Below are positions 4,414-64,000 of a DNA stretch of 64,000 bases, in pieces. A program made the translations under genes and the position numbers. The notes below the pieces were generated by a model. That model was not told the origin of the DNA. It did not search any database and worked only from the letters and a program-made list of their open reading frames with translations. The stretch lies in the IMG/VR virus record IMGVR_UViG_3300013233_000436, positions 4,804 to 68,803 of that record; one strand, written 5' to 3'. This DNA is from a virus. Each line of letters begins with the position of its first letter. The first letter of the stretch is position 1.

Positions 4414-4420
4414 AGCTACA

Positions 4421-42387: not shown

Positions 42388-42389
42388 AC

Positions 42390-45959: not shown

Positions 45960-45968
45960 GGAATTAAT

Positions 45969-48900: not shown

Positions 48901-51900
48901 TGAAAGACGCGACAAAAGAGGCTTACATATCTCATGTGACCCAAAACGATGAAGCCTTTGATTCATCCAAAGAGAAGAACAAAACAAAGGCAATCAAGAA
49001 ACAGGGCAAGTCTGCCAGCCTTGTGAATGAATCCAAATCAAACGGGTTCCCTTATCTTGAGGATATGAAGGTTGACTCCATCGTAATTGATGAAGCCCAT
49101 GTGTTCAAAAACTCGAAACAAATTATCTCATTCAAGGGTGGCGCTGGATTGTCTATCGCCGCCCCATCCGGTCGCGGTAAAGACGCTCAAGTTAAGTGCT
49201 GGCACATTCGCAGCAAAAACAAGCTGGGAGACGGTGTGCTGCCATTGACGGCCACACCGATCACCAACAGCCCACTAGAAATGTACTCCATGCTTTCTCT
49301 TGCGGTTGGCGAAGAAGAGCTGAATGCGCGTCTTGGCGGCATTCGTGGAGCCGATGATTTTATGGAAGCCTTCACCGATGTTTCAGAGCGTGAGCGAACC
49401 AATATAATCGGAGAAACAACGCTGTCCCGCGTTTTTGAGGGACTGAAAAACACCGATATGCTGCAAAAAGTGCTGCACGGAACGGCCAACATTAAAGGTC
49501 GTGAGCAGGCTGATATTGAGATGCCAGACCAAGAAAACGTAACCGTCGAGATTGCCCTTGATAAGGGTCAGAAAGACGGCCTCATGGGGCTGAAGCAGAT
49601 ATATGGGATAGCAAAACGTGTGGAGTCAAAAGGAAGCTACACGGAAGAAGAATACCGCATCGTAAACGATTATTCAGACAAAACCGGCGAAGACTTTAAG
49701 CTTTTATCTCACCCATTCAATCTAATTGAAAAGATGAATAATCTGATTTTGGATGAAGATTTGGCGCATAAAAGCACGGTTTATCGGTTTGATGATCGGG
49801 CTGTTGCGGAGTCAGTTGTGGCCGCATTTAACAAGATCGGGATTAAAGAGCTAAGGGAGCGACCAACTCCAGCACAAAGAAGCGATGCCGCAATAGAGTC
49901 GGTTTTAAAAAGCACTGGCGGCGAAGAGAAGGCGTATATTAAAACTTACATCCAAGCCTACATTGAGGGCGACAGAATCATCCTTGATAGCACGGACTTT
50001 CAGATCCAGAATCGCTTCCTAAAGATTGCCGAAAAGAAAAAACTGGATATGGATGTTTCCGTCTCACCAAAAATAGCCGCTATGCTGGAAAACTTCTCCA
50101 AGGAGTTGGCTGCACCAAAAGCAGAGGGAGGAAAGTGCAAGCAGATCATATTCTGCGACTCTCTCGGAATGCACAACAAAATAAAGATGATTTTGCAGAA
50201 AAAGGCGGGGATACCGTCAAGCAAAATAATCATAGTCAATGGCGCATCTGTCACCGATCCATCCGACATGCAGGACATTCAGGATGGGTTTAACTCAGAG
50301 GGTGAGGACAATAAATACAGTGTGGTGATTGCCAATGAAAAGGCCGAAGTCGGGATCAATCTTCAAGTGGGCTGCCAAGCAATCCACCACTTAACGATAA
50401 AATGGACTCCAGATTCCTTGCAGCAACGAAACGGACGCGCCGTTAGACAGCTCAACTACGTTAAAAACGTCCGTGTGTACAGCTACGATGCAGAAGGGAC
50501 ATTCGACGAATACAAGCGTGAAATGGTCGATAAAAAAGCCGATTGGATCGGTGAGTTAATGAGCGGCAAAAGCGGCGGCAAGGTGGCCGTATCCGGCTCT
50601 ATGTCCAAGGAGGATGGCGACATACTGATAAGCTCAATGGGCAGCAAGGAGGCCGTCAGAAAGGCGCGTGAGGCTATGGCAGCAAAAGAGGTTGAAGAGA
50701 AGAAAGAGGCCAAACGCGCCTTGGTCGCTTCAAACTTGGATGATATTTTGGTGCAGCAAGAGACGGTTAAAAAGTACCCCGAAGCGGAGGATTACATTAA
50801 AGAGCAGATTGGCCTTGCTGTTGACGTTGCAAATCAGTTGACGCGAACAAAAAATAGAGCTGAAAAAATCAGCAAATCAAAAACCATTGACAGAAAAAAG
50901 CTCAATGCCGCACGAAAAAATTCCAGCGCCTTTCAGTCTCAATACGACAAACTGGAAGAGCTGATTGACTCCTCATGCAATATTTACAGCCAAAGCAAGA
51001 CAAAAAAGACCCTTGCCGATATTTTGAATTATGCGCTGTATGCAAACACATCGGGAGTCCTGAACAAAGAGAAGGTTTTGGAGTCGCTTGCTTACTCCAA
51101 GTTTTATGTAAACGAAGACTCCACACTCGCAATTGATTGGGATATTGAGTTATCGACCGCCAAGGGCGTGATAAAAGAGGCGACCGAAAAGGCAATCTCA
51201 ACCGCCACTGAATCGGGTATTGATGCGGATCGAGTGGAGGCTGTTATCTCTGGAAAGGCGATAACCCACGGCGGGAAAATCGTTTCTGTTGGCGATTTTG
51301 TGGAAGAGGACGGCGTTGTGTTCGTGGCGCAAGATCCAAATAAAAACAGCTTTTTCTCTGTTTCAATGGATGGGGAAACCTCATACGCACCCGAATCAAT
51401 CCTATTGACCGGCGAAATAATCAACAAAGAAAGCCCCAAGTATGCCGAAACAGTTAAGCGGGTAGCTGCAATAGACAAGGCTGTAATGGACAAAATTGGC
51501 GGAATTAAAGCCGAGGTATATCGCGGCGATATTCACCAAGAAAGCATGTACCACCAAGAAAACACCGACGTTCTTGCCTTTTTCCCAGAGGAAGAGGTTC
51601 TTTTGGTTGTAGAAGAAGATGATTTGGATGGCCGCATAAGTCTCGCGTCTGGTAAACCTCTCATAAGAGATAAGCCGGTAGGCGGGATTATGTTGGCGCT
51701 GTACGAGAAACAGAATGGCGCTGTAACTCGACTAAAGAGCGGAGATTATGCCATCAAGTCTTCTCAAATAACTCCAGCCAGACCAAAAGAGGATATTTTA
51801 CAATACGTTATTGAAGAGGCCATAATTGCGAACCACAAAATAGAGCAAGCCGATATTGATGCTCTTCGTGAGTCTGGCGTTGGGTACAGTGGGTCTGGCG

Positions 51901-52487
51901 GGGTTTATGTTCACAAGATTTTTGAGAAAGTGATCCGAGAAATAACATCCAAAGCCGGTAAAACCGATTCAGACGACTTAAGAGACCTCTATTCTGACGA
52001 TGAAGGTCTGGACGCATTCAGGGAAAAATCCCACAATTTCATCCAAGGGATTTACGGCGATTACCTCGACTTTTCAATCATCGAGGACAAGTACGCAGAG
52101 GTCGCGTATAACGCTTTTTTCAGTGGGTACGGTAGCGACCACATAGATTCAGCATTCTATTCAGCAGAGGAAGATTTCAAGGATAAGTCAAACCCTGAAC
52201 CAGAAGAGCCTGAAACAGAGACCGGTGAGGTGGTTGCAGCCAAGCCTAAAGATTGGGTTGCCCTTACTGGCGACTTGAAGCCGATAAGGGCGCATATAAA
52301 ATCATCCGCAAAATCAATGGATTCAAAGGCGTGGTGGTGCGGACAAAAACAGGCTGCATCAAAATACCCTAACTCACCTGAAAACTCATGGATAGTTCAG
52401 TATGATGTTTACCAGTATTTTTTGGAGCGATACCCAAGTCAGGCCGAAAAGAGAAATATAACAATCCATTACCAAGATGAGGGCTAA
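45969..52487 (+). CDS. darB: DarB: adenine methyltransferase + SF2 helicase antirestriction protein
   Basis: EYYTP, VLDPSAGTGIF, TNVPF; DVGLGKT, IDEAH, TATP, QRNGR..RQ; 2172 aa. Confidence 0.92.
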   Translation: MANSIFDSALSGIEKIKLVRELSAIRKNLHGDLSGMAKIKLAKRIKSIRLEIGVKPASVVQKTNEPAADAFDFDPNIKVSKRKKNNKAAFDLLQKIVSGEIEKSTLTMDQKKILAGYSGTGGGLTGEDGKSGSPYEYYTPKPLADGVWGLLGDMGFSGGKVLDPSAGTGIFGATAPPNAVVDAVELDETSGKINDILNGDRGKVTVSAFEEVAASTPDGIYDSIVTNVPFGDNSVRGTHAKKDPKYQKESLDGYFILRSLEKLKAGGLAAFISSTGFVSGKKYEKLRVKSSLIAEFMGAYRLPNSVFLNTGADVTTDIIIFKKHSKEAQEEIEGRQQNAVDSLIQANVLWQPFVSGKYFKEDGKKYLIGETKQKQNRFGGMSDFVDSEKSVSDIAKILKKFPGSRIDWASLNAEEAEVIQYHEGDTLFVRGEQMVMKDGKFKKADVGESDKMMDKIHASIKDPCESLRYSYEELSSFHSHYQSRGLYQEIPQWLNNAIEEVEAGNVSAVNFDDMMTVIAVNHIFNQHSASLPFDFLGSYPDLSKRIPKAIFSGNRYKNPKISASYKVTSAFYDRKSKVYSGLWRGEPEAEVKNDLSSLQKYERLRYSMADSDGFVPIESFQHLVGEDPMEKDRWCISSDGKGVMHKDDYYFGSYAEFLAKHGGVPQKNLSEDQRRKIMAQVDAANEKLIRVNHKEISFNMKSPYVDVGRKAEFLKKYVDDGFFVERDDSGKEVIAYKESKAKKGKYESLSDEEFAEQKRNIKRLHQYLTKGTITTQTSLKDKKANPKQEKARVERLKRSINAANQQFDSWVRANSAIQGEIEKRFNNPDKLFFPEVDDSAPLNIGGINPKFNPRGHQNSAIRRYTRRMTGILGYDVGLGKTASALLTIKHIHNIGIKKKTIFVVPNATMSNWRKEVKGIFLEDSDCLFVGLNVKTNEEGEEIGSSIKSSDYQRDLMKVLEGKHSKIFMTLTAFEGIPLKDATKEAYISHVTQNDEAFDSSKEKNKTKAIKKQGKSASLVNESKSNGFPYLEDMKVDSIVIDEAHVFKNSKQIISFKGGAGLSIAAPSGRGKDAQVKCWHIRSKNKLGDGVLPLTATPITNSPLEMYSMLSLAVGEEELNARLGGIRGADDFMEAFTDVSERERTNIIGETTLSRVFEGLKNTDMLQKVLHGTANIKGREQADIEMPDQENVTVEIALDKGQKDGLMGLKQIYGIAKRVESKGSYTEEEYRIVNDYSDKTGEDFKLLSHPFNLIEKMNNLILDEDLAHKSTVYRFDDRAVAESVVAAFNKIGIKELRERPTPAQRSDAAIESVLKSTGGEEKAYIKTYIQAYIEGDRIILDSTDFQIQNRFLKIAEKKKLDMDVSVSPKIAAMLENFSKELAAPKAEGGKCKQIIFCDSLGMHNKIKMILQKKAGIPSSKIIIVNGASVTDPSDMQDIQDGFNSEGEDNKYSVVIANEKAEVGINLQVGCQAIHHLTIKWTPDSLQQRNGRAVRQLNYVKNVRVYSYDAEGTFDEYKREMVDKKADWIGELMSGKSGGKVAVSGSMSKEDGDILISSMGSKEAVRKAREAMAAKEVEEKKEAKRALVASNLDDILVQQETVKKYPEAEDYIKEQIGLAVDVANQLTRTKNRAEKISKSKTIDRKKLNAARKNSSAFQSQYDKLEELIDSSCNIYSQSKTKKTLADILNYALYANTSGVLNKEKVLESLAYSKFYVNEDSTLAIDWDIELSTAKGVIKEATEKAISTATESGIDADRVEAVISGKAITHGGKIVSVGDFVEEDGVVFVAQDPNKNSFFSVSMDGETSYAPESILLTGEIINKESPKYAETVKRVAAIDKAVMDKIGGIKAEVYRGDIHQESMYHQENTDVLAFFPEEEVLLVVEEDDLDGRISLASGKPLIRDKPVGGIMLALYEKQNGAVTRLKSGDYAIKSSQITPARPKEDILQYVIEEAIIANHKIEQADIDALRESGVGYSGSGGVYVHKIFEKVIREITSKAGKTDSDDLRDLYSDDEGLDAFREKSHNFIQGIYGDYLDFSIIEDKYAEVAYNAFFSGYGSDHIDSAFYSAEEDFKDKSNPEPEEPETETGEVVAAKPKDWVALTGDLKPIRAHIKSSAKSMDSKAWWCGQKQAASKYPNSPENSWIVQYDVYQYFLERYPSQAEKRNITIHYQDEG

Positions 52488-52489
52488 CC

Positions 52490-52897
52490 ATGCAATACGA
52501 TCTACACCTTCCAGAGAGCTATGATTTATCACAATCCGATGCTATCGCGCAGCATTGGCGGGACTCTGGGAAAGATCCCGTGATTGAGATTGCAAAAATA
52601 CTGCTTGGGGAGGTAAAAAAACAGCAGCTTGGATACCTGAGATTTGGCGCTTACTGGTGGGCGCTAAAGTCGATTTTCATCAAGCTGGACTTGGTTGGCG
52701 ATATTGGGGATTCAGACTTTCTAATTGAGGGGATTTACAAGGGGAGGCTTGATCTTGAAACGCTGATTATGGCCGACCAATTCAGCACTTGGTACGACCA
52801 AAACCAGTTTCAAGGCGCAAGAGAGACAGAGGTCAATCTTGGCGGGGATTCGTATCAGCTTTATGACTCTGGGTTTGATCCTTTTTTTCAGGGATGA
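52490..52897 (+). CDS. ulx: Ulx-like protein
   Basis: YLRFGAYWWALK resembles P1 Ulx; directly after darB as in P1. Confidence 0.65.
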   Translation: MQYDLHLPESYDLSQSDAIAQHWRDSGKDPVIEIAKILLGEVKKQQLGYLRFGAYWWALKSIFIKLDLVGDIGDSDFLIEGIYKGRLDLETLIMADQFSTWYDQNQFQGARETEVNLGGDSYQLYDSGFDPFFQG

Positions 52898-52937
52898 AAT
52901 CAGGTAAAAACGCCTGATTGCTCACTGCTACAATGTT

Positions 52938-52966
52938 TCGAGGATAGTTGTCAAAACTATCCTCGA
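52938..52966. repeat. Perfect 12-bp inverted repeat with 5-nt spacer
   Basis: TCGAGGATAGTT-GTCAA-AACTATCCTCGA between convergent genes. Confidence 0.85.
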
Positions 52967-52980
52967 TCCACTTTTCCAGT

Positions 52981-53154
52981 TCAGAATTTGTCATAAAGAG
53001 CCTGCACTACAATTTGCTCAATCAGCCTGCTTGTGCTGATCCGCTGTTTTTTTGCTTCAAGCTCCGCAACTGCGCGAACTTTTGGCAAAACTCGAATGGT
53101 CAAAGATCCTCGAACCTGATCTTTGGGTTTTGGTTTTCTTCCTAATGTTGCCAT
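52981..53154 (-). CDS. Ribbon-helix-helix DNA-binding protein
   Basis: GRKPKP...LTIRV..KVRAVAELEAKKQRISTSRLIEQIV. Confidence 0.7.
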   Translation of the reverse strand: MATLGRKPKPKDQVRGSLTIRVLPKVRAVAELEAKKQRISTSRLIEQIVVQALYDKF

Positions 53155-53492
53155 TACGCTCTTTTCCCCGTTGATTTGTTGGCCCATGCCCCGCGATCAA
53201 CATCAAGACCTACCGGATTTGAGTATCGGTAGGCCATCGCCAGGCTGCGCTTGCAGAGGTGCGATAAAACATCATCGTCAACATCTTGAGAAACCGCATC
53301 CTCAACAACGTCAAAATAATCATCCTCGCCATCAGATTGTTCTGGGACATTAATGTCAAACCCAACCATAGAAAGATATTTATCCAAATCCAAAACAAAC
53401 TCTTTTTTTATCGCTTCGGATGGCATTCCGTAGGCCATAAGGCCGGTAACAGGCTCATTTTTAACGAATTCGATTAATTTTGAAAGTCTCAC
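53154..53492 (-). CDS. Hypothetical protein
   Basis: AACACTGGAGA leader before GTG. Confidence 0.6.
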   Translation of the reverse strand: MRLSKLIEFVKNEPVTGLMAYGMPSEAIKKEFVLDLDKYLSMVGFDINVPEQSDGEDDYFDVVEDAVSQDVDDDVLSHLCKRSLAMAYRYSNPVGLDVDRGAWANKSTGKRA

Positions 53493-53520
53493 CTTGAATC
53501 TCCAGTGTTTTTAATGTGGC

Positions 53521-53781
53521 TTACTTGTCTTGTGAATAAATAAAAGAAAAGAAGTCGTTTCTCAGATTTGGGGCGTGTTCGCGCTGAAAATCGACATCTT
53601 GTGATAAAAAATGACCCTTAAAGGCTTTGGCTGCATCATCAAAAGTTTCAAAGCACTTGCTCCGAATGTCGCCATGCACCGTGCCGAAGAAAGAAAAAGT
53701 GCCAGCGGGGTTCTTATCAAGGTGAGTCCCAAACGTGCCAACTGATAAAATTGGGCTTTTGCTGCTTTGTAAAATACCCAT
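53521..53781 (-). CDS. Hypothetical protein
   Basis: Same AACACTGGAGA leader before ATG 53781. Confidence 0.6.
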   Translation of the reverse strand: MGILQSSKSPILSVGTFGTHLDKNPAGTFSFFGTVHGDIRSKCFETFDDAAKAFKGHFLSQDVDFQREHAPNLRNDFFSFIYSQDK

Positions 53782-53882
53782 TTTGGGTCTCCAGTGTTTT
53801 TTTAATTCCAGCTCACCGTTGAGCCGATGAGTGAATATTAGACCCCTCAAATATAAAACGCAAGCGGTTTTTTAGAATAGTT

Positions 53883-53927
53883 TCAAATAAAAATGTAACT
53901 GCTATTCCGTTGCACTCATTTGATAAT
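53883..53927 (+). promoter_or_regulatory. Putative late promoter 5
   Basis: TCAAATAAAAATGTAA - 23 nt - GATAAT upstream of portal. Confidence 0.75.
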
Positions 53928-53955
53928 GAAAATCAAACTAATTGTGCGGGTGATC

Positions 53956-55593
53956 ATGGCAGCTAAAAAACAGAAAACGGGAGCCTTGCAACGGCTTTTC
54001 GGTTGGATCTCCAGCGAATCACCGCAAGAAGTCATCGACGATGGCGGTGGTGGGTACAGTAATCTATACGATGCCCTAACAAACAGCGGTAGCGATGATC
54101 CAGAGGACGATGCTGATGCGCTCATAAAAGAGCTGCCAAGGAGTCGTTATGACCGCTATACGATCTACGATGAAATGGTCAAAGATCCGTCCGTAAAAAC
54201 AGCCCTCTCTCTGCACGTTGCTCACGCATTGGCTCCAAGCCTTAAATCTGGTGAGGTTGTGTTTATTGAGTCACCAAACGACGAAGACAATGAGATTGTC
54301 ACTGATCTACGCAACACATTTAAAGCATTGTTCAACGAGGAAGCATCGACTTGGGCGCGGTTTGCCGGTCGATACGGCTGCTACTACCTGCGACCTTACA
54401 TAAAGGCCGGTGAAGGTATTGTTCGCGTCCGCTGCGACCACTACACGCATCCCGCGCATATCAGGGAATACGAGCAAGCGGGGCGGATTATCGGCTATGC
54501 AAGCACGAAGTATTTGCCAGCAGACAAAGGTGGCGGCCTCCCTCTGCTTGAGCCGTGGAAGATTGTCCCCGTAAAAATGCCGGGCTGGTCTCCAGACTCA
54601 ACAAAGGAACCATCACGCCAAAAAGCGGAACAGTTCTCTCTTGCCGATGAAGATTTTGAAAACGAGGAACCGGTAGAAACTCAGAACTACGGCGAATCGC
54701 TGCTAGAAACAGCCTACACGCCGTGGACAGACCTCAATGAAGCAATCCTTGCCCTGAATGCAGCGCGTAGAGCGTCCGCCAAAAAAGACCGGTTTGTGGG
54801 ATATTCAGCCAATGGCAAAAACATGGATGTTGCAGCAAAAGAGATGGGCCTGCTTGCTAAGCTGTTTAAACGTAAAAAAATAGAATCGGCACGAAGGTCT
54901 CTTAAAAAAGGGTATGTTGGCACGGTTGATACCACCATTTACCCCATGTTCGCCTCTGGTGCTGGTGGCGTGACAATCCAAACCGAAGATTCAAGTGCGG
55001 ACATTAACGCCATTGAGGATGTTAATTTTCACGTTGCACGTCTTGCATCTGCTCTGGCAACCGACAAATCCATGATCGGCTTTACGGATGAACTATCCGG
55101 GGGTTTAGGTGATGGAGGCTTCTTTCGTGTGTCCGTCAATGCCGCTCGATACTCTGCCAACCTGCGAGATGCCGTGGCAACCGCAATGGAACGGCTGTGT
55201 GAAATCCACGTTGCAGCGAAGTTTCAAAAAGTGTTTCCAGAGGGTGAAAAGCCTTGGCGGATCAGATTTAACTCTCTAAGCAGTGCTTTGGAGCAGGAAG
55301 CCACCAATGCGCTGGAAACAAGCTCTAATGTTGCCTTATCGGTTCTCACCCTGCTGCAAACAGCAGACCCCGAAGGCACTGTTTTTGATGCCAAGAAAAC
55401 AGCATCGTATCTAATGACCGATATGCTGGGAATGGAGGGCGACAAATTCGCGGAACTGATAAAAGACAGTCCACCTGTTGACGTGGAAGGATCAGGCGAA
55501 CCCCCGATTGAAGACGATCCTGTTATGGATTCCGCCACCGAAAAACTAATGAAACAAATATTTTTAGAGGCCAGTAAAAATGAGCAAACTTAA
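53956..55593 (+). CDS. prt: Portal protein (P1 Prt-like)
   Basis: YTIYDEMVKDP..ALSLHV, ETQNYGESLLE, INAIEDV, LSGGLGDGGFFR. Confidence 0.88.
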   Translation: MAAKKQKTGALQRLFGWISSESPQEVIDDGGGGYSNLYDALTNSGSDDPEDDADALIKELPRSRYDRYTIYDEMVKDPSVKTALSLHVAHALAPSLKSGEVVFIESPNDEDNEIVTDLRNTFKALFNEEASTWARFAGRYGCYYLRPYIKAGEGIVRVRCDHYTHPAHIREYEQAGRIIGYASTKYLPADKGGGLPLLEPWKIVPVKMPGWSPDSTKEPSRQKAEQFSLADEDFENEEPVETQNYGESLLETAYTPWTDLNEAILALNAARRASAKKDRFVGYSANGKNMDVAAKEMGLLAKLFKRKKIESARRSLKKGYVGTVDTTIYPMFASGAGGVTIQTEDSSADINAIEDVNFHVARLASALATDKSMIGFTDELSGGLGDGGFFRVSVNAARYSANLRDAVATAMERLCEIHVAAKFQKVFPEGEKPWRIRFNSLSSALEQEATNALETSSNVALSVLTLLQTADPEGTVFDAKKTASYLMTDMLGMEGDKFAELIKDSPPVDVEGSGEPPIEDDPVMDSATEKLMKQIFLEASKNEQT

Positions 55594-56689
55594 CCGCATT
55601 ACCGCAAAATTCAACATCTTTGACAACGGTCGAAAATACACCGGCCAAAAACGCGGCTATGTTTTAGACAATTGGAAAGCTGCAATCAACAACAAAGTTG
55701 TGCAGGAACGCATTGCTCTTGGTGAGATGGTTGGCTACGTTGGCCACGGCTACCGAAAACTAACCGGCAAGCTGATGCCCGAAGAGATGGAGGTGGCCAA
55801 TATGCCCAATGGCAGCCAAATCGTGCTTGATGCCGATCCATCACACCGCTGTGTTGAGCTATCAATTGATGATGCTGGCAACGTGACGCACACCGAAGAG
55901 GTTTTTGACAACGACCAAGGCAAGCGGGTTATGGGGTTTCATAACTCAAAGTTTGGTGGATTTTCCGTTGCCGCCGCCCCTGCATCTGGAAGCAGTAGCA
56001 GCAGAACACTAATCGACATGGTTTATGGATTTGATTACGTCAATAACCCAAACTTTGCCGAAAATCGCGGCTATATTTTAGATGATGCCAGTGACGCTCC
56101 AAGCCGTGACAACGCCATTAAAGCCTTATCTGATGCCGGTATTGACAGTGCGGAGGCTGTGTTTGATGGCTGGGTTGAATCGGACGGTGCTTATTACAAA
56201 GATGCCATCTTTGATGCCGAAGACAAATTGATTGACTCGCAAATCACCGTTGGCGAACAAGAAAAAGACATTCAGTTATTAAGCGATAAGATCGAAGAAC
56301 TTGAAAAGCGGATTGAAGATCAAGCGATCTCACACGACAACGCTATTCTTGATAGTGCTTCACACTACCAGCAAGCCACCACGTCACTTGAGTCTCAATT
56401 GAAAGCCGATCACAGTGCAGAAATTGAGAAAATGGCCGTGACTCGATCAAAGGTAATGCAGAGAATGGCGGCACAATCACCTGTCGCCATACCTGATGCC
56501 GTCCTTGATTCACTTTCTAGTGCAGGGGATGTTGCTGGGATGAAGCCATTTCTCGATTTTCTTTCTAAAGCCGCAAAAATCGACGCATCGGATTTACCCA
56601 TTGGCAATCACACACCGCACTTTGTGGCCATTATTGCCGATGACGCTGGAGAAGATATTCAGTCCCCAGAGTTTGGTATTTTTGATTAA
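55580..56689 (+). CDS. pro: Prohead protease (P1 Pro-like)
   Basis: GEMVGYVGH, PSH, GGFS, GFDYVNNPNF T4-gp21-like motifs; follows prt. Confidence 0.85.
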   Translation: MSKLNRITAKFNIFDNGRKYTGQKRGYVLDNWKAAINNKVVQERIALGEMVGYVGHGYRKLTGKLMPEEMEVANMPNGSQIVLDADPSHRCVELSIDDAGNVTHTEEVFDNDQGKRVMGFHNSKFGGFSVAAAPASGSSSSRTLIDMVYGFDYVNNPNFAENRGYILDDASDAPSRDNAIKALSDAGIDSAEAVFDGWVESDGAYYKDAIFDAEDKLIDSQITVGEQEKDIQLLSDKIEELEKRIEDQAISHDNAILDSASHYQQATTSLESQLKADHSAEIEKMAVTRSKVMQRMAAQSPVAIPDAVLDSLSSAGDVAGMKPFLDFLSKAAKIDASDLPIGNHTPHFVAIIADDAGEDIQSPEFGIFD

Positions 56690-56692
56690 ACC

Positions 56693-57799
56693 TCAATTGT
56701 TGACCTTTGCCAGCCATTCGCTTGCTGGCAATTCAACAACATTCGACCGCAAGGAGTAAATCTTATTCTTGCCTTTCATTTTAAGGTCAAGATAGCCCTC
56801 TTCTTTCATTCGCCCAAGAATGGCCGTGGCCGGTTCGTACTGGATTCCCAGCAACTTCCTAACCTTTGATACTGCTGGCGTTATTTCGCCGGTAAGAATC
56901 GCTCTCTTGGCTTTGTCAAAGTCGCTAATGTCTTCCTTTAGCTCCATAGCGGCTTTTTCGATCAAACCCTCTGTTTCTGTATCCTCAATCTCAACTTCTT
57001 TGCAGGAATCTAACTGGATTCCACTAGATTGATCTTGCTGTCTTGATCTTATAGTCGCATCCACTGGCAGTGTCTCCAGTGCCTTAGTGGATTCTTCCAC
57101 TGTATAACCTGAATCCACTAAGATTCTGTTTAAATTCAACACCTTATCTTTCTTTCCAAACACATATAATCCAAAGATAGACAGTGAATCCATCAATAAT
57201 CCTATGAGGCTGAATACAATCCACTGCATAGTGGATGCGGATATTCCAAGAATATTGGCCGCTGATTGCCAAGAATTACCGGCCTCTGGCTGAGAGGTGC
57301 CAAGCGTTTTTAGCGCCTCTAGTTTCGCCTCTTTTTTGCTTTGAAGCGCCTCGATTCTGTCCTGTTTTGGTTTGATGCACTTTGTCTCCCATGCAACATT
57401 GCAGCCCTTAACCTGAACCCTAATATCCTCTATTTGCCTCTCAATGGATTGTATATCGGACAGTGCGAACCGGTAATTCGTGCTGTTCTTTGCCTCAAAA
57501 ACCATACTGGTATCAAGGCGACTCTTGAAAAAAAACACCTCTGAGAACACGCTTAACAGCATTATTGGGATCAGCAGCATGGCAGCAACAACCCGCTTTA
57601 GATTGCTTGCGCTTGAGAGTGTGGAGCCTATAACGATCTTGGATAGGATTATGCCCAAAACCACAAGGCCGCCAATGGCCGCTGATAATGCGCCAGGCTG
57701 AATGGAGTAGTAGAGATGCCATTGTGATATGGCGGCAACAGCAGACAACAGCAGGGCGGCTATGAGAGCCGTGTATTTTGTGGTCATAATTGTTTTCAC
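56693..57799 (-). CDS. Membrane protein with coiled coil and C-terminal winged helix (DdrA-like architecture)
   Basis: 3 TM + coiled coil + TM + linker + FDKAKRAIL.GEITPAVSKVRKLLGIQYEPATAILGRM (FtsK-gamma-like wHTH). Confidence 0.65.
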   Translation of the reverse strand: MKTIMTTKYTALIAALLLSAVAAISQWHLYYSIQPGALSAAIGGLVVLGIILSKIVIGSTLSSASNLKRVVAAMLLIPIMLLSVFSEVFFFKSRLDTSMVFEAKNSTNYRFALSDIQSIERQIEDIRVQVKGCNVAWETKCIKPKQDRIEALQSKKEAKLEALKTLGTSQPEAGNSWQSAANILGISASTMQWIVFSLIGLLMDSLSIFGLYVFGKKDKVLNLNRILVDSGYTVEESTKALETLPVDATIRSRQQDQSSGIQLDSCKEVEIEDTETEGLIEKAAMELKEDISDFDKAKRAILTGEITPAVSKVRKLLGIQYEPATAILGRMKEEGYLDLKMKGKNKIYSLRSNVVELPASEWLAKVNN

Positions 57800-57912
57800 C
57801 TATTGGGAAGTCTGGGAAGGACTCCCAGACCGTGGTTTAACTTGAAATAGAGATAAAGAACAGCAGTATAACGAAAAAGCAGGCTATACCGGAAAAGTAC
57901 AAAGTTAACGCC

Positions 57913-58122
57913 TTAACCTGATTCATTCACAAGATCCAAGTATCGAATCTTTGGGTATGCGTCCATTAGCGTGATACTGAACCCGCAAGATTCGCAAGAG
58001 TGGCCGTATTGCGGTGGGCATGTTGGGAAATATTGGCCGTTGGGTGTACAAACACCCTCCCCGCATTCGTCGCAAAGGTATTCGATTTTTTCAACCGAAA
58101 CCGGTTTTGACATTTCTGGCAT
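57913..58122 (-). CDS. Small zinc-ribbon protein
   Basis: CDECG...PPQYGHSCESCG...YP. Confidence 0.65.
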   Translation of the reverse strand: MPEMSKPVSVEKIEYLCDECGEGVCTPNGQYFPTCPPQYGHSCESCGFSITLMDAYPKIRYLDLVNESG

Positions 58123-58164
58123 TTTGTTTCTCCAATTTCCGGCCGTCTTTGGCCGTATTTATCA

Positions 58165-59388
58165 TTATACGATTGAGCCATCCTCAATATAAAAACCCTG
58201 CTCACCGTCTTTTTTGCTGCTCACCAACTCAAGAAAGACTTGAAATCCAGCATCTTCGGCATCACGAATAACTTCGGCCTGAGCATCTTCGTCAAGCAAG
58301 CTGAAATTCTCAAATATTGCCACTCCAAGGTCGCCCTTGAGTTTTCGAGCAATCTGAAACGCAATTTTTCTATGCTGTCCATCTGAGATCAGCCGGTGGC
58401 CATTATACGTCAACGCCTCGCCATCGTATGACAAGCCATCAATGGGGAATTCAGCGCCACTTATTAGGCTGGAGCGATCTTCATCACAATTGCTGACTTC
58501 ATCCGTCAGATGATCGTACTCTGATTTTTTGGCCTTAAATGACTTGCTGCCGACAGCCCACTGTTCGTAGATAGCCGCTTTTCTGTTGGTGTCCTCAGCA
58601 GATCGTAGCGACTCGGAAATAGCCGATGTATCAATCACTTTCATTGACTCCAAGCTGGCCTCTCGTGATTTGGCTTCACTCTCAATCCACTGCTTTTTGA
58701 TTTTCAGCTCGACAATCTTGGCCTCAAGACCTGAAATAGAAGCGATTGTTGCCGAAAGCTCACTACCAAGTCCGTCAATAGATGTTTTAATGTTTGCGAT
58801 TTTGCGATTATTTTCATCCGCAGCCTGAATCTCAGAAACCAATTCAGCGGCATTAACTCGCTCGACCTTTTCAGGCTCTACGCCAGGATCGAGAGCTTTA
58901 ACCTCGCGGCCAACACCCTGGCGTTCCAAGTAAAATTCTTTACGCTTGGACTCAATATCACGCAACGGCTCGGACAAACCAACCATTTCCAGCACAGCCT
59001 TATCGCGCTTCTCGTTCGAGAGATTGAGGAATTTCTGTAGATCAACAAAATTGTGACCGATTAGTGCATCTAGTGTGGCCTGATTGCCTCGCATACCATC
59101 GGATTTAACAAGCAATGTTGTTTTTCCGTTCTTGAATTTTCGACACACAGTGATTGGCTCACTGCCCCCTCTTATTTCAAGATCAATCTCACCATCACAT
59201 TTAAGCAGCTCTTCTCGCTTTGCCTTGTCAAGATTCCCATACGCAAGCGCGGAAAAAATAGCGTTGACCATCCTGCTTTTTCCAGCCCCGTTTTTCCCCA
59301 TGATTTTAACTACGGACGGAAGATCCATAGGCCCAGCATTAATACCAAGGACATTTGAAATTGTTACTGTTGAAATCTGCATACTCAT
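58165..59388 (-). CDS. SbcC/Rad50-like ABC ATPase
   Basis: Walker A GKNGAGKS, long coiled coil, ISDGQ signature, IFENFSLLD. Confidence 0.8.
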   Translation of the reverse strand: MSMQISTVTISNVLGINAGPMDLPSVVKIMGKNGAGKSRMVNAIFSALAYGNLDKAKREELLKCDGEIDLEIRGGSEPITVCRKFKNGKTTLLVKSDGMRGNQATLDALIGHNFVDLQKFLNLSNEKRDKAVLEMVGLSEPLRDIESKRKEFYLERQGVGREVKALDPGVEPEKVERVNAAELVSEIQAADENNRKIANIKTSIDGLGSELSATIASISGLEAKIVELKIKKQWIESEAKSREASLESMKVIDTSAISESLRSAEDTNRKAAIYEQWAVGSKSFKAKKSEYDHLTDEVSNCDEDRSSLISGAEFPIDGLSYDGEALTYNGHRLISDGQHRKIAFQIARKLKGDLGVAIFENFSLLDEDAQAEVIRDAEDAGFQVFLELVSSKKDGEQGFYIEDGSIV

Positions 59389-59405
59389 TTTGTTTTCCTC
59401 AAAAA

Positions 59406-60017
59406 TTAGTTGGCTAGTTTTTTGGATATTTCATCCATTTCATCCATAAACTTTGGCACATAAAAATCCAAAGCCTTGAAATACTCTTCATCCGGTTCAA
59501 TCTTTAGAATCAGGGGATTGAAATCATCGTGATTCGATACAAAGAACCACCATTTCAAACCCGTAACCCACATGCTGAACTGGACTTGCCCAAAATAGAT
59601 CGTGGGCAATTTATTGGCAACAAGGTATTCAAGATGAACAGCAGGTGAGGGTGATTTTATCTCGATCCCTCCAAGCTCACCATTCAGATCAACAAGGCCG
59701 TCGGGACTGCAACCAACACGCCGATCATCGTCTTTGTAGATCAATCCCGTCTCATGCACCTCTGCATCAAGCATGAACTCAAACACCTCTCTACCACGAT
59801 GCTCGACCTCGTTGCCGCGCTCCATCCATTTTGATTTAAAGCCCTCCTCGATTTTTCCAGTTATCCGCTCCGCTGTAAGTTTGAAAAGAAGCTTTTTCCA
59901 GCTTGCGGATTTTTTGCCCTTCGTCGTAACCGCCTGACCGATCACCGACGCGCTCAACACGCCAAGGCGCGACCGTAGCCATGCCTCCGTGCCTTGTTCG
60001 TAGTGAGTGATGATCAT
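59406..60017 (-). CDS. YqaJ/lambda-type exonuclease
   Basis: QGTEAWLRSRLG, MERGNEVE, CSPDGL, IEIKSP, QVQFSMWVTG. Confidence 0.92.
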   Translation of the reverse strand: MIITHYEQGTEAWLRSRLGVLSASVIGQAVTTKGKKSASWKKLLFKLTAERITGKIEEGFKSKWMERGNEVEHRGREVFEFMLDAEVHETGLIYKDDDRRVGCSPDGLVDLNGELGGIEIKSPSPAVHLEYLVANKLPTIYFGQVQFSMWVTGLKWWFFVSNHDDFNPLILKIEPDEEYFKALDFYVPKFMDEMDEISKKLAN

Positions 60018-60604
60018 GGTATTTTACTTTGCAGCATTGAAACGGCTCTGCTGAATATCTCAGGGTTAATCCCAGAAATCGTCTTAGATTTTGCCCACTT
60101 CAAAAACAGATCGGTATCTGAATTGGATTCTTTTATCAGCCGCTTCAACTGATCTGCTTGACCCGATGTTATTGTGTTTGTACTGCCATTAGCTCCACCC
60201 GCTGAAACTGAATCAGAGTCAACCCCGTCATCAATCGCAAACATTGCACACAGAGCGTATTTTCTCGCATAGCTCGAAGCTGACCCAGTAACCTGAGCCG
60301 CATCCATTCCCTTTTTTTCCAGCGGCTCACGGGCAAACGCAGAAACCGAGTGGCTTTCATGGCCACAGTGAATTGTCGCCGTTGATTTAACGTAAATACG
60401 ATCCGCAACCTGAATAATATCATCGCTGATTGTCACAGAGCAGTCGCCCAAAACAAGTTTAAGCCCCTCAAAAATGTCCTCCGCACTTCTGTAGTTGTAT
60501 TTTCCAAACCCATTGAACTTGGACTTTTTAGCAACCAGCTTTTTTTGTATTTCCGTCAATGCGGAAAACACCCCCCCGCCACCAACCTTTGCTTGATCAC
60601 CCAT
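60014..60604 (-). CDS. erf: ERF-family single-strand annealing protein
   Basis: YNYRSAEDI, KKGMDAAQVTGSASSYARKYAL. Confidence 0.92.
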   Translation of the reverse strand: MGDQAKVGGGGVFSALTEIQKKLVAKKSKFNGFGKYNYRSAEDIFEGLKLVLGDCSVTISDDIIQVADRIYVKSTATIHCGHESHSVSAFAREPLEKKGMDAAQVTGSASSYARKYALCAMFAIDDGVDSDSVSAGGANGSTNTITSGQADQLKRLIKESNSDTDLFLKWAKSKTISGINPEIFSRAVSMLQSKIP

Positions 60605-60742
60605 TGCCTTTACTCCAGTTTGTTGATCGACTCACAGCCAAAGCAGCACTTGCTCCAGCCTTAAAAATTGACTCCGCCATTTGAACATCGCCATTAAGCT
60701 CAATGACAGCCTTAATGACACCCAAAAGGCGCTCTTTTTTGC

Positions 60743-60964
60743 TTACAGACACAACTCACCCCGTTCTCTCAATTCTCTGCTGATGGACAGCAGATTTTTG
60801 ATCTTAATCCCGATTACATCAAGGATAATCTCCTTGGTTTTTCCCCGTGCGCGTTCTGCACGGCGTTCTGCTTCCTCAAGATCCAATCGCAACTCCAAAA
60901 GCATGGAGCGCATATTGCCAATATCGCCGCCAACTTGCGACGACCCCAAATTCATAACCTTCAT
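60743..60964 (-). CDS. Small coiled-coil hypothetical protein
   Basis: CTGGAGAGG SD; first gene of leftward operon. Confidence 0.6.
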   Translation of the reverse strand: MKVMNLGSSQVGGDIGNMRSMLLELRLDLEEAERRAERARGKTKEIILDVIGIKIKNLLSISRELRERGELCL

Positions 60965-60983
60965 ATCATCCTCTCCAGAGAAT

Positions 60984-61110
60984 CAGTAAATTTCAGTTGA
61001 AAGCTCAACTGGGATCTAATATAGCAAGACGTTAATGCTTTATCAACTACTTTCAGTGGTTTTTTTAGGGTTCGCTCGAATTGACAAAAAACCACTCTTT
61101 GTAGAGAATG
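60984..61110. promoter_or_regulatory. Divergent promoter/operator region
   Basis: TTGACA-17-GAGAAT at 61081-61109; palindrome CAGTTGA-AAGC-TCAACTG; 11-bp IR AGTGGTTTTTT/AAAAAACCACT. Confidence 0.6.
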
Positions 61111-61138
61111 GTTGCACCAAACAACAGGGAGTAAAAAA

Positions 61139-61390
61139 ATGAGTGAAACCAGATTTGAATGCAGAGAGGCAATTAAGGCGGTTGTGGCAGCAATCGGAAC
61201 GTACAAAGATGTCGCCAAGGTGTGCGGCGTAAACAGTCCTGAATCAATCAGAAAGTGGATTGTGGCGGGGCATTTGCCGCGAACTGACTACACAGGTGAG
61301 ACCAATTACGCCTCTATCCTGATCAACGCGGCAAAACGCGGCCACGGGATCAAAAAGAGGGATCTACTGCCAAGGCTAGGTAAATTTTAG
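61139..61390 (+). CDS. Cro-like DNA-binding protein
   Basis: VAKVCGV...SIRKW..GHLPRTDYTGETNYA. Confidence 0.8.
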   Translation: MSETRFECREAIKAVVAAIGTYKDVAKVCGVNSPESIRKWIVAGHLPRTDYTGETNYASILINAAKRGHGIKKRDLLPRLGKF

Positions 61391-62028
61391 AACCACGCGC
61401 TTTTTAGTTTTGATGCCGGGCGGTGCTTTTTCGGTATGCCGCCCCAACCAACAGGCAGGGCGTTTTTCTTCTCTCTGCTGTCCCTCAGCGACATCAATTC
61501 AGCGTAGGCCATTTTTTCCATACCAATTGCACGGGCTGGACATTTTGATTTTGCTCTGCGTAGAATCTCATGCTCATCTACTCCGGCGCGTTTCGCAACA
61601 TCGGCAGCAGGCTCCCAATTTTTGCCGGTGTTCACGCTGAATTTTCCGCTCTCATCAATGCGTGTTCTCCGAACCCGCTTCTTGTATTCAAACATCTCCG
61701 CGCCACGAATGCCGCTGTAATACCTGTTTGTTACAGTTGAAAGGCTAACCTGTTTTTCCCGCGCCCACTCCCTGATTGTTTTTTTTTCACCTTCAATCTC
61801 AACAACATCACCGCCACTAAAATCCGAGTTTGTGTTTGTGATTAGCTCCAGCCCCCTGCGACCTGAATCCCATCTGTGTGCTGCGGCGCGGTAGGACAGA
61901 CCGCTCACTTCACTCGCCTCTCTCGATATGAGCCATCCATGCTCCAACCCACACCAATACTCATACATAATCCGATTGCCAACTCTGCGCTCTCTGCGCC
62001 CAATCTCAATATCACTGATTTTTTTCAC
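61387..62028 (-). CDS. Hypothetical protein with three repeated HTH-like units
   Basis: ISREASEVSGLSY..A.HRW.SG, TIREWAREKQVSLSTV.NRY.SG, AADVAKRAGVDEHEILRR. Confidence 0.6.
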   Translation of the reverse strand: MKKISDIEIGRRERRVGNRIMYEYWCGLEHGWLISREASEVSGLSYRAAAHRWDSGRRGLELITNTNSDFSGGDVVEIEGEKKTIREWAREKQVSLSTVTNRYYSGIRGAEMFEYKKRVRRTRIDESGKFSVNTGKNWEPAADVAKRAGVDEHEILRRAKSKCPARAIGMEKMAYAELMSLRDSREKKNALPVGWGGIPKKHRPASKLKSAWF

Positions 62029-62112
62029 GCCACACCCTCAATGTATTTGTGTTAATTGAGCTATCAATATACAATAGGGTACTGCAAAACACAACACACT
62101 AGGAGAAATAAA

Positions 62113-62769
62113 ATGGTAGGAAAAACGTGGGCAACAGTATCCGCCTTAGCTGCTGTAAAAAATCTTGAGATTGGATACACGCCAGAAAACCTAAAAAAAC
62201 TCATGAAGGCGCACGGAATTAATCGAAAAATACTGGCTACAGAGCTTGGTGTAGATGCTCAGTCGGTGAGCGCGTGGAGAGCGCCGATTGGTGCTGCCAT
62301 GCACCGCGACATGAACACAAAAAACTGGCGTAAATTTCTACAGATGCGAGTTGAGACAGAGACCATTCAGGTCTACTCTCTTGACGGCGATCACTTCGAT
62401 CACGATCCGCTGGACTTGATTTCAGAGCAGCCCGACATTGAGTCTGGAGTAATCACACTGTACGTTGCAGACAGAGTACCGGTGTCCGCTGGACAGCTCT
62501 TCAAAAGCTACGGCATTATTGACGGTATCACCGAATCAGCGCATGAGCTGTGTGGCGTAGATGACTATCTCGATGATCTATCAGCCGATGCAGAATCAGG
62601 GCTGATCGAGTCAATTGGAGGCGCGATCAACAAGTGGGCTGATGATCATGAATTGCAGCCCAAATTTTACGCTATTGAAAATGTGAGAAGGGCAAATTAT
62701 CGGGTTGTTGTAGATGATAACGGCAATCTTGATGATATTGTAATGATAGCTTGGGAGTATTTGAAATGA
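62113..62769 (+). CDS. ELGYTP-type HTH protein 1 with acidic C-terminal domain
   Basis: LEIGYTPENLK..LATELGV..QSVSAW..HRDM..W; AGGAG SD. Confidence 0.75.
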   Translation: MVGKTWATVSALAAVKNLEIGYTPENLKKLMKAHGINRKILATELGVDAQSVSAWRAPIGAAMHRDMNTKNWRKFLQMRVETETIQVYSLDGDHFDHDPLDLISEQPDIESGVITLYVADRVPVSAGQLFKSYGIIDGITESAHELCGVDDYLDDLSADAESGLIESIGGAINKWADDHELQPKFYAIENVRRANYRVVVDDNGNLDDIVMIAWEYLK

Positions 62770-63158
62770 GTGAAAAATTACCAGAAACAACCATATCACC
62801 GAATGTTTGCGATATTGTTAGAGAGTCTTTAACAGTGAGGGGCTACAGCGGCCTCTCAAACAAGGTCAAGGCGTGTTCCTGCGACATCAGCAGCCTTGCC
62901 CCTTGTGGTGATATTCATGGCGACTGTAGGGCATTTTTCATGGTTCGGGAAGGTGGGCTTGAGCTTGGATACACACCAAGCAACCTTCGAGCCTTGCAGC
63001 AGCAACATGGACTGTCCAATTCAGAGCTGTCAGAGATTTCTGGAGCGACGATAACAACGGTCTGCAACTGGCGAACTGGATTAGATAAAGACCATCATCA
63101 CGGAATGCCGCACCAACGATGGGTGCAGCTACTTGGTAAATTGGAGGGGGAAAAATGA
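62766..63158 (+). CDS. ELGYTP-type HTH protein 2 with Cys-rich N-terminal domain
   Basis: LELGYTPSNLR..LSEISGA..TVCNW..HHGMPHQRW. Confidence 0.75.
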   Translation: MSEKLPETTISPNVCDIVRESLTVRGYSGLSNKVKACSCDISSLAPCGDIHGDCRAFFMVREGGLELGYTPSNLRALQQQHGLSNSELSEISGATITTVCNWRTGLDKDHHHGMPHQRWVQLLGKLEGEK

Positions 63159-63391
63159 GCTACGAACTGGGATACACGCCAGCAAATCTAAAAGGGATTA
63201 TGGTTAAAAACAGAATATCAAACAAGGAGTTATCCATTGCTTTAGGTGTTTCTATCGCTACAATCAGCTATTGGTTGTCCGATGTTGGCAGTGCCAGCCA
63301 TCACGGAATGCCGCACAAAAGATGGGTGGGTTTTATTGAACAAATCGACTATTTTAGTGATTGTAAATCTGGTGGAGGATCATGGGCATGA
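63155..63391 (+). CDS. ELGYTP-type HTH protein 3
   Basis: YELGYTPANLK..LSIALGVSIATISYW..HHGMPHKRW. Confidence 0.75.
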   Translation: MSYELGYTPANLKGIMVKNRISNKELSIALGVSIATISYWLSDVGSASHHGMPHKRWVGFIEQIDYFSDCKSGGGSWA

Positions 63392-63600
63392 GCGACTACG
63401 AGCTAGGGTACACACCAGCAAACCTGCACAAGATCATGAAGGACAACAAATGGCGAACGTGTCAGGTTGCCAAGGCGCTTGGCGTTGGAAACAGCACTGT
63501 AAGCAATTGGAAGGCATCTTTGGACAAAAGCAGTCACCGTGATATGTCATCACAAAAATGGCGCGACCTTGTAAATATTCTTCAAAATGAAGCTGATTAA
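63388..63600 (+). CDS. ELGYTP-type HTH protein 4
   Basis: YELGYTPANLH..VAKALGVGNSTVSNW..HRDMSSQKW. Confidence 0.75.
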   Translation: MSDYELGYTPANLHKIMKDNKWRTCQVAKALGVGNSTVSNWKASLDKSSHRDMSSQKWRDLVNILQNEAD

Positions 63601-63698
63601 GGTATAATCGAATCTCAGGCAAAAGAATGGCCGCAAAACGGGCGGCCAAATAACATTACAAGCCGCTGCATTATAGCAGCAAAAGGAAAAGTTTCAAT

Positions 63699-64000
63699 AT
63701 GGCTATAGATAAGTTAATCAAACATCAAGCCGGTATCCCGTTCGTTATGAATTCGCGTGACGTTATTCAATCGCTTAAAAATCCAGAGGCTCTGGCGATT
63801 TGGGTCTACCTGCAAAGCCTTCCTGAGAATTGGATATTCAGAGAGATGCAAATCCGCAACCATTTTTCGATTGGTCGCACACGATACCTTTCTGCAATGC
63901 GAGAGCTGAGAGAGTCCAACCTATATCAAGTAAAGCGTCGCAAGAACGATGCAGGACAGTTTATCGGTAGCGATTACCACATCTATGCACTGCCACACAC
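63699..64000 (+). CDS. Phage replication initiator N-terminal wHTH, 3'-truncated by window edge
   Basis: Own translation ...EALAIWVYLQSLPENWIF...YLSAMRELRESNL...GQFIGSDYHIY; AAGGA SD. Confidence 0.65.
   Translation, partial: MAIDKLIKHQAGIPFVMNSRDVIQSLKNPEALAIWVYLQSLPENWIFREMQIRNHFSIGRTRYLSAMRELRESNLYQVKRRKNDAGQFIGSDYHIYALPH

Follow-up and report, generated by a model that had tools for sequence, protein, structure and literature searches.

The stretch of viral DNA analysed here, referred to as the window, consists of 64,000 nucleotides (positions 4,804–68,803 of the IMG/VR record IMGVR_UViG_3300013233_000436). Towards its right-hand end lies a gene for a protein that is predicted to combine an N-terminal membrane domain with a C-terminal winged helix. 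Inside the coding sequence of this gene the heptamer ATCCACT occurs in a dense cluster, and it is this gene together with its internal repeats that we describe below.

The winged-helix gene and its ATCCACT repeats

The coding sequence occupies positions 56693–57787 on the minus strand and corresponds to 364 amino acids when read from the ATG at 57787. As judged from the sequence this ATG is most likely the start codon, preceded at 9 nt by an AGGTG ribosome-binding site, and the library protein P0001 has the same 364-residue form. The maximal open reading frame (ORF) extends to a GTG at 57799 (368 residues), and residue numbers in this text count from that GTG.

Five exact copies of ATCCACT or its complement AGTGGAT are found within positions 57059–57236, at 57059–57065 (+), 57086–57092 (−), 57113–57119 (+), 57219 (+) and 57230 (−). 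Copies with one mismatch start at 57013 (−), 57019 (+), 57095 (+), 57183 (−) and 57375 (+). Those at 57019 and 57095 are TTCCACT variants, while the sites at 57013 and 57019 overlap and cover 57013–57025 in the one-mismatch scan. The five exact copies encode the peptides VD (twice), ST (twice) and QWI (once). A preliminary description of this DNA had listed the exact copies, the two TTCCACT variants and the three peptides, and all of these are confirmed.

To correct for the post hoc choice of the motif, every 7-mer was scanned at all positions, pooling both strands and disregarding overlapping copies. None of 150 order-3 Markov simulations of the window contains a 7-mer with five or more copies in 180 bp, while four copies are reached in 58 of them. 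In the real window at least five copies in 180 bp are found only for ATCCACT, for CAG-type runs around 17.5 kb and for TCAACAA around 4.26 kb. When the codons of the gene are shuffled synonymously such that the protein remains fixed, ATCCACT occurs on average 0.84 times and at most four times, and five copies are obtained in none of 20,000 shuffles. The best count of any 7-mer reaches five in 0/300 such shuffles. With 8-mers and one mismatch allowed, the gene contains seven sites, a number that is equalled by none of 100 shuffles. The cluster is real and lies at the level of the DNA, since neither the simulations nor the protein-preserving shuffles ever give the observed count, and the DNA-level constraint that was initially proposed stands. 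Over the window as a whole 16 exact copies are present, compared with 6.6 ± 2.5 in dinucleotide shuffles (16 reached in 0/100), and none lies in the 4.8 kb by which the 68,803-bp record exceeds the window. A strand polarity resembling that of the FtsK-orienting polar sequences (KOPS) was rejected because the 16 copies are divided equally over the strands (8 versus 8) and show no positional trend.

It is rather unlikely that the cluster has no function and arose, with the help of chance, in a linker under little constraint through slippage, local duplication or gene conversion. In favour of such an origin, the linker is disordered and variable, and the genome demonstrably undergoes 12-nt tandem duplications. 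The latter is seen for the ATCCACT pair at 12675 and 12687 (duplication at 12639–12728, minus strand), which encodes AKST-AKST in a 1353-residue ORF (9756–13817) that has no PHROG match. This pair had been considered as a second binding site and is rejected as such, as the tandem peptide repeat accounts for it. In the gene itself simple slippage is insufficient, because both orientations occur among the copies and unrelated sequence lies between them, and the observed count is reached in no null model.

The architecture of the protein was derived from an AlphaFold2 model built on a 22-row alignment (mean predicted local distance difference test, pLDDT, of 81.7), which replaced a poor single-sequence model (pLDDT 47). 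Residues 1–215 are predicted confidently, and pLDDT exceeds 90 in the membrane domain as well as in the winged helix, in agreement with the transmembrane helices and C-terminal winged helix-turn-helix that were proposed at the outset. Three N-terminal transmembrane helices are predicted for codons 9–90 (57530–57775, minus strand, as are all further segments) from hydrophobicity and from model helices 2–33, 37–63 and 66–104 (pLDDT ∼90). They are followed by a putative periplasmic loop, codons 95–187 (57239–57517), consisting of helices 107–131, 138–167 and 172–184 (pLDDT 89–98), in which Cys133, Trp137, Cys141 and Pro144 are invariant among the four closest members of the family (alignment A2). 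From the translation and the model, codons 188–215 (57155–57238) form the fourth transmembrane helix (TM4), with a KKDK sequence after it. In the inferred topology the loop is placed in the periplasm and the C-terminus in the cytoplasm because these positive charges follow TM4. Codons 216–272 (56984–57154) are likely to be a disordered linker, with pLDDT values below 50 for residues 220–222 and 229–272. The C-terminal winged helix-turn-helix, codons 280–355 (56735–56962), is modelled as three helices and a β-hairpin with pLDDT values of 91–96. The homodimer prediction score is 0.00, which counts neither way.

The model identifies the C-terminal domain as a winged helix. In Foldseek it matches the FtsK γ domains 2ve8_G (template modelling score, TM-score, by target 0.76, root-mean-square deviation 2.6 Å over 58 columns) and 2ve9_A (TM-score by target 0.75, 2.4 Å over 59 columns), but it superposes about equally well on the winged helices of AspA, ArsR-type proteins, CzrA, CadC, DnaD-N and MarR. 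The nearest solved protein by sequence is the ArsR-type YgaV (E = 0.11). Pfam gives no match to the window protein at E values up to 1, including FtsK_gamma, Phage_rep_O and Trans_reg_C, and the sole PHROG match is a weak one to the C-terminus (PHROG 3551, FtsK/SpoIIIE-like, E = 0.005). The FtsK-γ-like character that was originally ascribed to this domain thus holds for its shape and not for family membership. No ATPase or RecA-type motor domain is present in the 368 residues according to Pfam and the AlphaFold2 model. Structural searches were uninformative for the membrane domain, as a wide VIA-align search returned only generic helical hairpins for residues 106–169. Foldseek matches to transmembrane domains of ABC transporters were disregarded (TM-score <0.21).

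Inverted repeats and the AT-rich tract

An inverted-repeat search shows that the ATCCACT heptamers are the cores of longer inverted repeats. Copies 2 and 3 are contained in a perfect 12-bp inverted repeat (57083–57094 with 57111–57122; pair I4) that has 16 nt between its arms. Copies 4 (+) and 5 (−) form an 18-bp dyad at 57219–57236 with 7-bp arms and a 4-bp spacer, such that the half-sites start 11 bp apart. The whole element, 57051–57244, is bracketed by a long-range inverted repeat of which the 15-nt arms (57051–57065 with 57230–57244; pair I3) are 87% complementary. This long-range pair is used in the predicted folds of both strands.

Given this arrangement, the element could act as RNA or single-stranded DNA, with nested hairpins in the mRNA or in an antisense transcript that would regulate how the operon's last gene is translated, stabilized or processed. 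The perfect 12-bp repeat and the 15-nt long-range repeat are suited to such a role, and both strands fold better than 200 of 200 shuffles (z = −3.79 and −4.16). The signal is nevertheless equal on the two strands, which palindromic DNA gives with or without RNA structure. Furthermore, the array in the homologous gene L015 and most of that in L007 (see below) are direct repeats, which form no mutual hairpins. We regard a role as RNA or single-stranded DNA as highly unlikely.

The two groups of copies are separated by an AT-rich tract (57120–57218, 68.7% AT) that belongs to the top 0.27% of 99-bp windows. An AT-rich tract flanked by repeats argues for a cis-acting site that serves a different protein and happens to lie in a permissive linker stretch: an origin for a DnaD-like initiator or for the DnaA of the host, or else a site for packaging or recombination. 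We also count in its favour that the six bases ATCCAC are the core of the DnaA-box consensus. However, between 56900 and 57400 the DnaA-box consensus has no exact and one relaxed match and the integration host factor consensus has none, using general patterns that may not be those of the host. The flanks of a DnaA box are missing from the copies, all five of which end in T and none of which is preceded by TT. The AT-richness is in turn mostly explained by the amino acids that are encoded, those of TM4 and of a Lys/Asn-rich segment: 64.6 of 102 positions are expected to be A or T from the peptide and the codon usage of the genome, and 71 are observed (P = 0.022).

A scan of 56000–59000 for promoters and terminators gave nothing beyond the shuffle expectation and nothing at the array. 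A relation to the late-promoter box of P1 was rejected, as the −22 boxes of LPpro and LPlyz in the P1 record are unlike ATCCACT. Just upstream of the ribosome-binding site of the gene, at 57805–57830, a GC-rich inverted repeat is present with arms of approximately tctggga and tcccaga and no T-run behind it. This repeat could serve as a hairpin for processing or attenuation.

Homologous genes and their repeat arrays

The window protein belongs to an unnamed family with three N-terminal transmembrane helices, a helical loop, TM4, a linker that differs in length and sequence between members and a C-terminal winged helix. Among 1.84 billion representatives phmmer finds 15 relatives at E values up to 1e-3, all via the membrane domain (residues ∼7–220). 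A profile search of a 5.8-billion set gives 17 proteins, mostly short forms of 255–308 residues. The Cys pair of the loop is present in most rows of the family alignment. Many of the full-length members align in a C-terminal winged-helix block (A1), which is absent from P0004, P0006, P0010 and the chromosomal short forms. The best-scoring member against Pfam FtsK_gamma (PF09397) is P0005, with 19.7 bits against a cut-off of 30.6. Neighbours in the ESM Atlas are clusters of ∼300–345-residue proteins that come from viruses and Pseudomonadota. A viral cluster with DUF7343, HTH_24 or MarR is taken only as a lead, and the 'SecY' names of some clusters, automatic labels without Pfam support, were treated as mis-annotation.

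The family is rare and occurs in viral contigs and in gammaproteobacterial genomes. Eight of 400 sampled gammaproteobacterial genomes have a match, while a phylum-wide sample yields one in 401, which is the centre genome itself. No match is found by tblastn of the window protein, the L007 protein or P0012 against 50,697 phage records or by megablast of positions 50000–64000, and a word-index search for close relatives returns the window protein alone. Scans of viral contigs give one locus for each of three sub-alignments and none for A4 or P0002, and two metagenome scans give no family locus. A short form without the winged helix (274–291 residues) is encoded in three gammaproteobacterial genomes (L004, 2194–3018; L005, 5980–6819; L010). 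As read from the ORFs, those in L004 and L005 lie at a conserved spot between hemE and the gene for a class A penicillin-binding protein, and because of this conserved chromosomal position the membrane domain may have a cellular role of its own. In three viral cases the family gene is found among early genes: Erf and exonuclease genes in the window, an adjoining gene for a single-stranded DNA-binding protein in L003 and an upstream YqaJ-type exonuclease gene in L007, the latter two again as read from the ORFs.

Synonymous-codon shuffles were carried out for ten loci, namely the window, L003, L006, L007 and L010–L015. L004/L009 and L005/L008, two chromosomal short forms resembling L010, were left out of these tests, and a plain k-mer listing of the L004 and L005 genes shows A-rich runs alone.

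The most extensive array is that of L007, which is located on a 35,460-bp record (57% complete according to CheckV). The membrane domain of L007 is homologous to that of the window family (P0009/P0011 group; hhalign probability 98.8%, 23% identity in the alignment). The gene contains ten exact copies of the 8-mer AGCGTATC, seven direct and three inverted, and two more with one mismatch. The AGCGTATC copies are all situated in codons 270–382, the long linker just before the C-terminal domain, and most of the linker peptide results from translating the repeats. In the direct copies the encoded peptides are SVS, RAY or QAY, and ERI. Since they fall in three reading frames, the constraint on the motif acts at the level of the DNA. 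The array is equalled by none of 300 synonymous shuffles for exact copies and by none of 100 when one mismatch is allowed. For a 9-mer, all eight exact copies in the record are inside the family gene, with none for the reversed control. In an Atlas model the last 70 residues of L007 resemble the winged helices of MarR, PadR and RepA_N (TM-score by query 0.60–0.68), and this winged-helix-like C-terminus is a lead and not a proof. One L007 repeat (5829–5843) runs into ATCCACTGCA, ten bases that also occur in the window at 57219 and 12675 (−). This is probably a coincidence, the motifs otherwise sharing only ATCC.

In L015 three tandem 11-bp repeats occupy the codons just after TM4 and are read in three frames. 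They are borderline, as they are matched in 4/300, 10/300 or 11/300 shuffles depending on word length. The starts of neighbouring copies are often 11–12 bp apart (12, 11, 11 and 12 bp in L007, 11 and 11 bp in L015 and 11 bp in the dyad of the window). In the other seven loci no cluster inside the gene is significant, which leaves two clear arrays among the ten, or three if L015 is included. The nearest of the seven is L013, where one 8-mer is equalled in 9/300 shuffles and which failed the one-mismatch test (28/100). In L003 (4661–4817), L006 (4310–4355) and L011 (203–300, reverse strand) triplets of 8- to 14-nt repeats are found in intergenic, promoter-like sequence 0.5–1.1 kb upstream of the family gene. 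They are probably ordinary operators and are not counted as arrays of the family. An in-gene array therefore recurs in the family without being universal. The suggestion in the preliminary description that homologues might carry clusters of their own is borne out for L007, by a denser array of a different motif, and to a lesser extent by the small tandem array of L015, and it fails for the other loci.

For an origin of the cluster without function these results count on both sides. The seven loci that lack a cluster are in favour of it. Against it stands L007, where an independent array of much greater size occupies the equivalent position, its motif being absent elsewhere in the 35-kb record.

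The arrays also bear on the option of a membrane-bound one-component transcription factor, similar to ToxR or CadC with reversed topology, in which the loop with the Cys pair senses the envelope and the sites in the gene serve for autoregulation or as a roadblock. Like ToxR and CadC, the window protein is predicted to unite in one polypeptide an anchor in the membrane, a periplasmic segment containing a Cys pair and, on the cytoplasmic side, a winged helix for repeated sites. The helical loop with its invariant cysteines, a winged helix of ArsR/MarR type and dyad-symmetric sites such as are typical of operators all agree with this option. ToxR and CadC differ in having an N-terminal OmpR-type winged helix, a single transmembrane helix and a C-terminal sensor, where the window protein has the reverse order, four transmembrane helices and intragenic sites, and there is no sequence relation and no Trans_reg_C match. 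The sites lie 550–740 nt into the coding sequence, at the operon's 3′ end, while the divergent promoter region around 62.03 kb contains no copies of ATCCACT. Moreover, the 10–12 sites over 340 bp in L007 resemble an iteron or centromere array and not an operator. A transcription factor of this kind is very improbable.

Proposed attachment to the membrane and the genomic setting

Our preferred explanation, which we put forward tentatively and at less than even confidence, is that the gene and its internal array form a site-in-gene module: the winged helix of the protein would bind the array in its own gene and so attach the phage DNA to the membrane. The protein would be inserted in the inner membrane through four transmembrane helices, with a helical periplasmic loop, and would hold its winged helix in the cytoplasm on a disordered linker of ∼55 residues. 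The DNA that encodes TM4 and the first half of the linker would provide the ATCCACT half-sites as a dyad, a 12-bp inverted repeat and degenerate copies. The winged helix is expected to bind these half-sites, probably as a dimer on the dyads, and with the protein fixed in the membrane the phage chromosome would be attached at the locus of the array. A site inside the gene of its binder would keep both together through phage mosaicism, as in the case of λ O and oriλ, and capture in cis is possibly favoured while the gene is being transcribed and translated and its product inserted at the membrane. The most likely purpose would be to organize early replication or recombination, or to position the phage DNA, at the membrane. 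Recognition of the array by the protein itself is the best reading because two distant members of the family in unrelated viruses carry private arrays in their own linker codons, which chance or a binder unrelated to the gene explain poorly. In further support, the structural matches of the winged helix are to domains that bind DNA, including FtsK γ in complex with KOPS and the centromere binder AspA. Tethering would then follow from the protein being embedded in the membrane.

Several observations weigh against this explanation. Most of the ten loci lack an array, and among these L003, L006 and L014 apparently keep the C-terminal winged helix. The copies in the window are of mixed orientation and irregularly spaced (27, 27, 106 and 11 bp), in contrast to the regular arrays in L007. 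Of the five copies, three overlap codons that are constrained by the protein, for example that of Trp193, which is invariant in the four closest members. The inverted repeats predict a stable fold of RNA or single-stranded DNA, as described above. Finally, an ORF for a DnaD-like helicase loader (63699–64000, plus strand; PHROG 186, E = 6e-5) is truncated by the contig end, so the initiator may be another protein. Our confidence is modest because most homologues have no array, the sites in the window are irregular and another candidate initiator exists.

The truncated DnaD-like ORF is likewise in line with the array being a cis site for a different protein, as is the maximum of the cumulative GC skew at 54–56 kb, although the latter coincides with the switch in gene orientation. 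The L007 array, on the other hand, has no adjoining AT-rich tract except its own TM4 codons, and the presence of arrays inside a gene of the same family in two unrelated viruses is hard to explain with an unrelated binder. We consider a cis site for a different protein to be unlikely.

Binding of the array by the encoded protein would have a close counterpart in λ O. According to PMC7466680, the recognition repeats and an AT-rich tract lie within the O gene's central part, and extra repeats add residues to the protein. The likeness consists of repeats inside the binder's own gene, which in the window family are in the part that codes for the linker. The winged helix of the family is C-terminal and that of λ O N-terminal, and the window protein is a polytopic membrane protein without a recognizable helicase-loader interaction domain. 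In the wider group of λ O, DnaD and the replisome organizers the window protein has no Pfam or PHROG match, and DnaD-N is only one of its many structural matches among winged helices. Small terminases with internal pac sites are another parallel for a site within the gene of its binder.

The φ29 protein p16.7 has a single N-terminal transmembrane helix, and its DNA binding, in conjunction with the terminal protein, is not sequence-specific. The window family differs from it in its four transmembrane helices, its periplasmic loop and its apparently specific site array, and no sequence relation was found. In function, p16.7, along with p1, is nevertheless a precedent for the recruitment of phage DNA by an early membrane protein: PMC4974454 presents p16.7 as an early integral membrane protein that binds DNA, with a proposed role in bringing replicating phage DNA to the membrane. 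FtsK and SpoIIIE share with the window protein the membrane anchoring by N-terminal transmembrane helices, the long linker and, in the γ domain, a winged helix of ∼60 residues (∼20% identity at the TM-scores and deviations given above). They differ in their α/β ATPase motor domain, which the window protein lacks, and the Pfam FtsK_gamma model gives no match to the window protein.

Winged helices are also found in partition proteins. Chains of AspA (pNOB8) are among the top structural matches (probability 1.0), and TubR, which acts on tubC, and pSK1 Par are winged-helix centromere binders with repeat arrays. The short repeats of L007 and L015, spaced by roughly one helical turn, resemble such centromeres. 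The centromere binders are soluble, act with a partition NTPase or are thought to replace one, and have their sites upstream of the operon and not in the gene. No ParA- or ParB-like genes are found among the 61 ORFs of the genome scanned against the PHROGs, in a record that looks incomplete.

In a bolder form, which we consider doubtful, the family would represent one-gene modules without an NTPase: a polytopic membrane protein would capture the array in its own linker codons, possibly in cis and co-translationally, and fix the chromosome of a phage or plasmid-prophage to the envelope for replication or inheritance. The membrane attachment of the replicon model of Jacob, Brenner and Cuzin would then exist in a literal and sequence-specific form, and the specificity for the site would differ between phages (ATCCACT in the window versus AGCGTATCC in L007). 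If the winged helix binds the array, the two would constitute a compact and portable protein–site pair that places DNA at the inner membrane, with at least two orthogonal specificities, and the role of specific membrane attachment in the replication and inheritance of phages and plasmids would become directly testable. Binding would also mean that the rule of the site in the binder's gene, known from initiators and small terminases, holds for a membrane protein as well, and a rare and unannotated family would gain its first functional handle. If binding fails, a statistically odd and unexplained repeat structure in the linker remains. A site in the gene of its binder and a membrane-anchored DNA binder of a phage are both known kinds, while their combination in a polytopic membrane protein with phage-specific site sequences appears to be undescribed. 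Searches of the literature on phage transmembrane winged-helix or FtsK-γ proteins and on membrane-anchored phage DNA-binding proteins, which were not aimed at a family name, gave no paper on such a family.

From its sequence the record is that of a distant P1-type myovirus. The contig starts with genes for a large terminase and a holin, and sheath, tube and baseplate genes follow at 15–37 kb. The portal protein is 33% identical to P1 Prt and the next gene is a homologue of Pro. Upstream of the portal gene DarA-like, DarB-like and Ulx-like genes form a P1-type anti-restriction block (39592–52897), which includes a DarA-like/primase-like protein of 931 residues, one of 1189 residues with DarB-like and lysin-like matches, and Ulx. 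A 2172-residue ORF takes the place of P1 darB in this block and is assigned there by position alone. Unlike in P1, the block is on the same strand as prt and pro.

The gene for the membrane winged-helix protein is the last of a leftward early operon in the order HNH, Erf, exonuclease, SbcC-like ATPase, zinc-ribbon and membrane winged-helix genes. It is convergent with pro, with 3 bp between the two ORFs, in a position where P1 has lydE, lydD and lyz. The label DdrA-like that had been attached to it is not sustained. The P1-type context with Dar anti-restriction genes is shared, but P1 DdrA has 121 residues and is encoded in the darA operon, the tblastn search gave no match in phage records that include P1, and the PHROGs give no DdrA match. 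To the right of the divergent region around 62.03 kb there are two repressor-like genes and then the DnaD-like ORF. Since this ORF is cut by the contig end, the replication module is incomplete in the record, and the lack of a terminal repeat makes it probable that the record as a whole is incomplete or permuted.

Between the zinc-ribbon and membrane winged-helix genes a 29-codon ORF, MNQVKALTLYFSGIACFFVILLFFISISS, is present at 57837–57926 (−). Its start overlaps the end of the zinc-ribbon ORF and its product is almost wholly hydrophobic, and judging from the sequence it may be a small membrane protein.

Two further repeats stand out elsewhere in the window. At 4197–4440, a region with only small ORFs and no clear iteron structure, TCAACAA/TTGTTGA reaches five copies in 180 bp and totals 43 copies in the window, far above the expectation for a 7-mer. 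At 17464–17750, within a 343-residue ORF (17150–18181) that has no PHROG match, there are dense CAG/CTG-type runs with up to seven copies of AGCAGCA in 180 bp.

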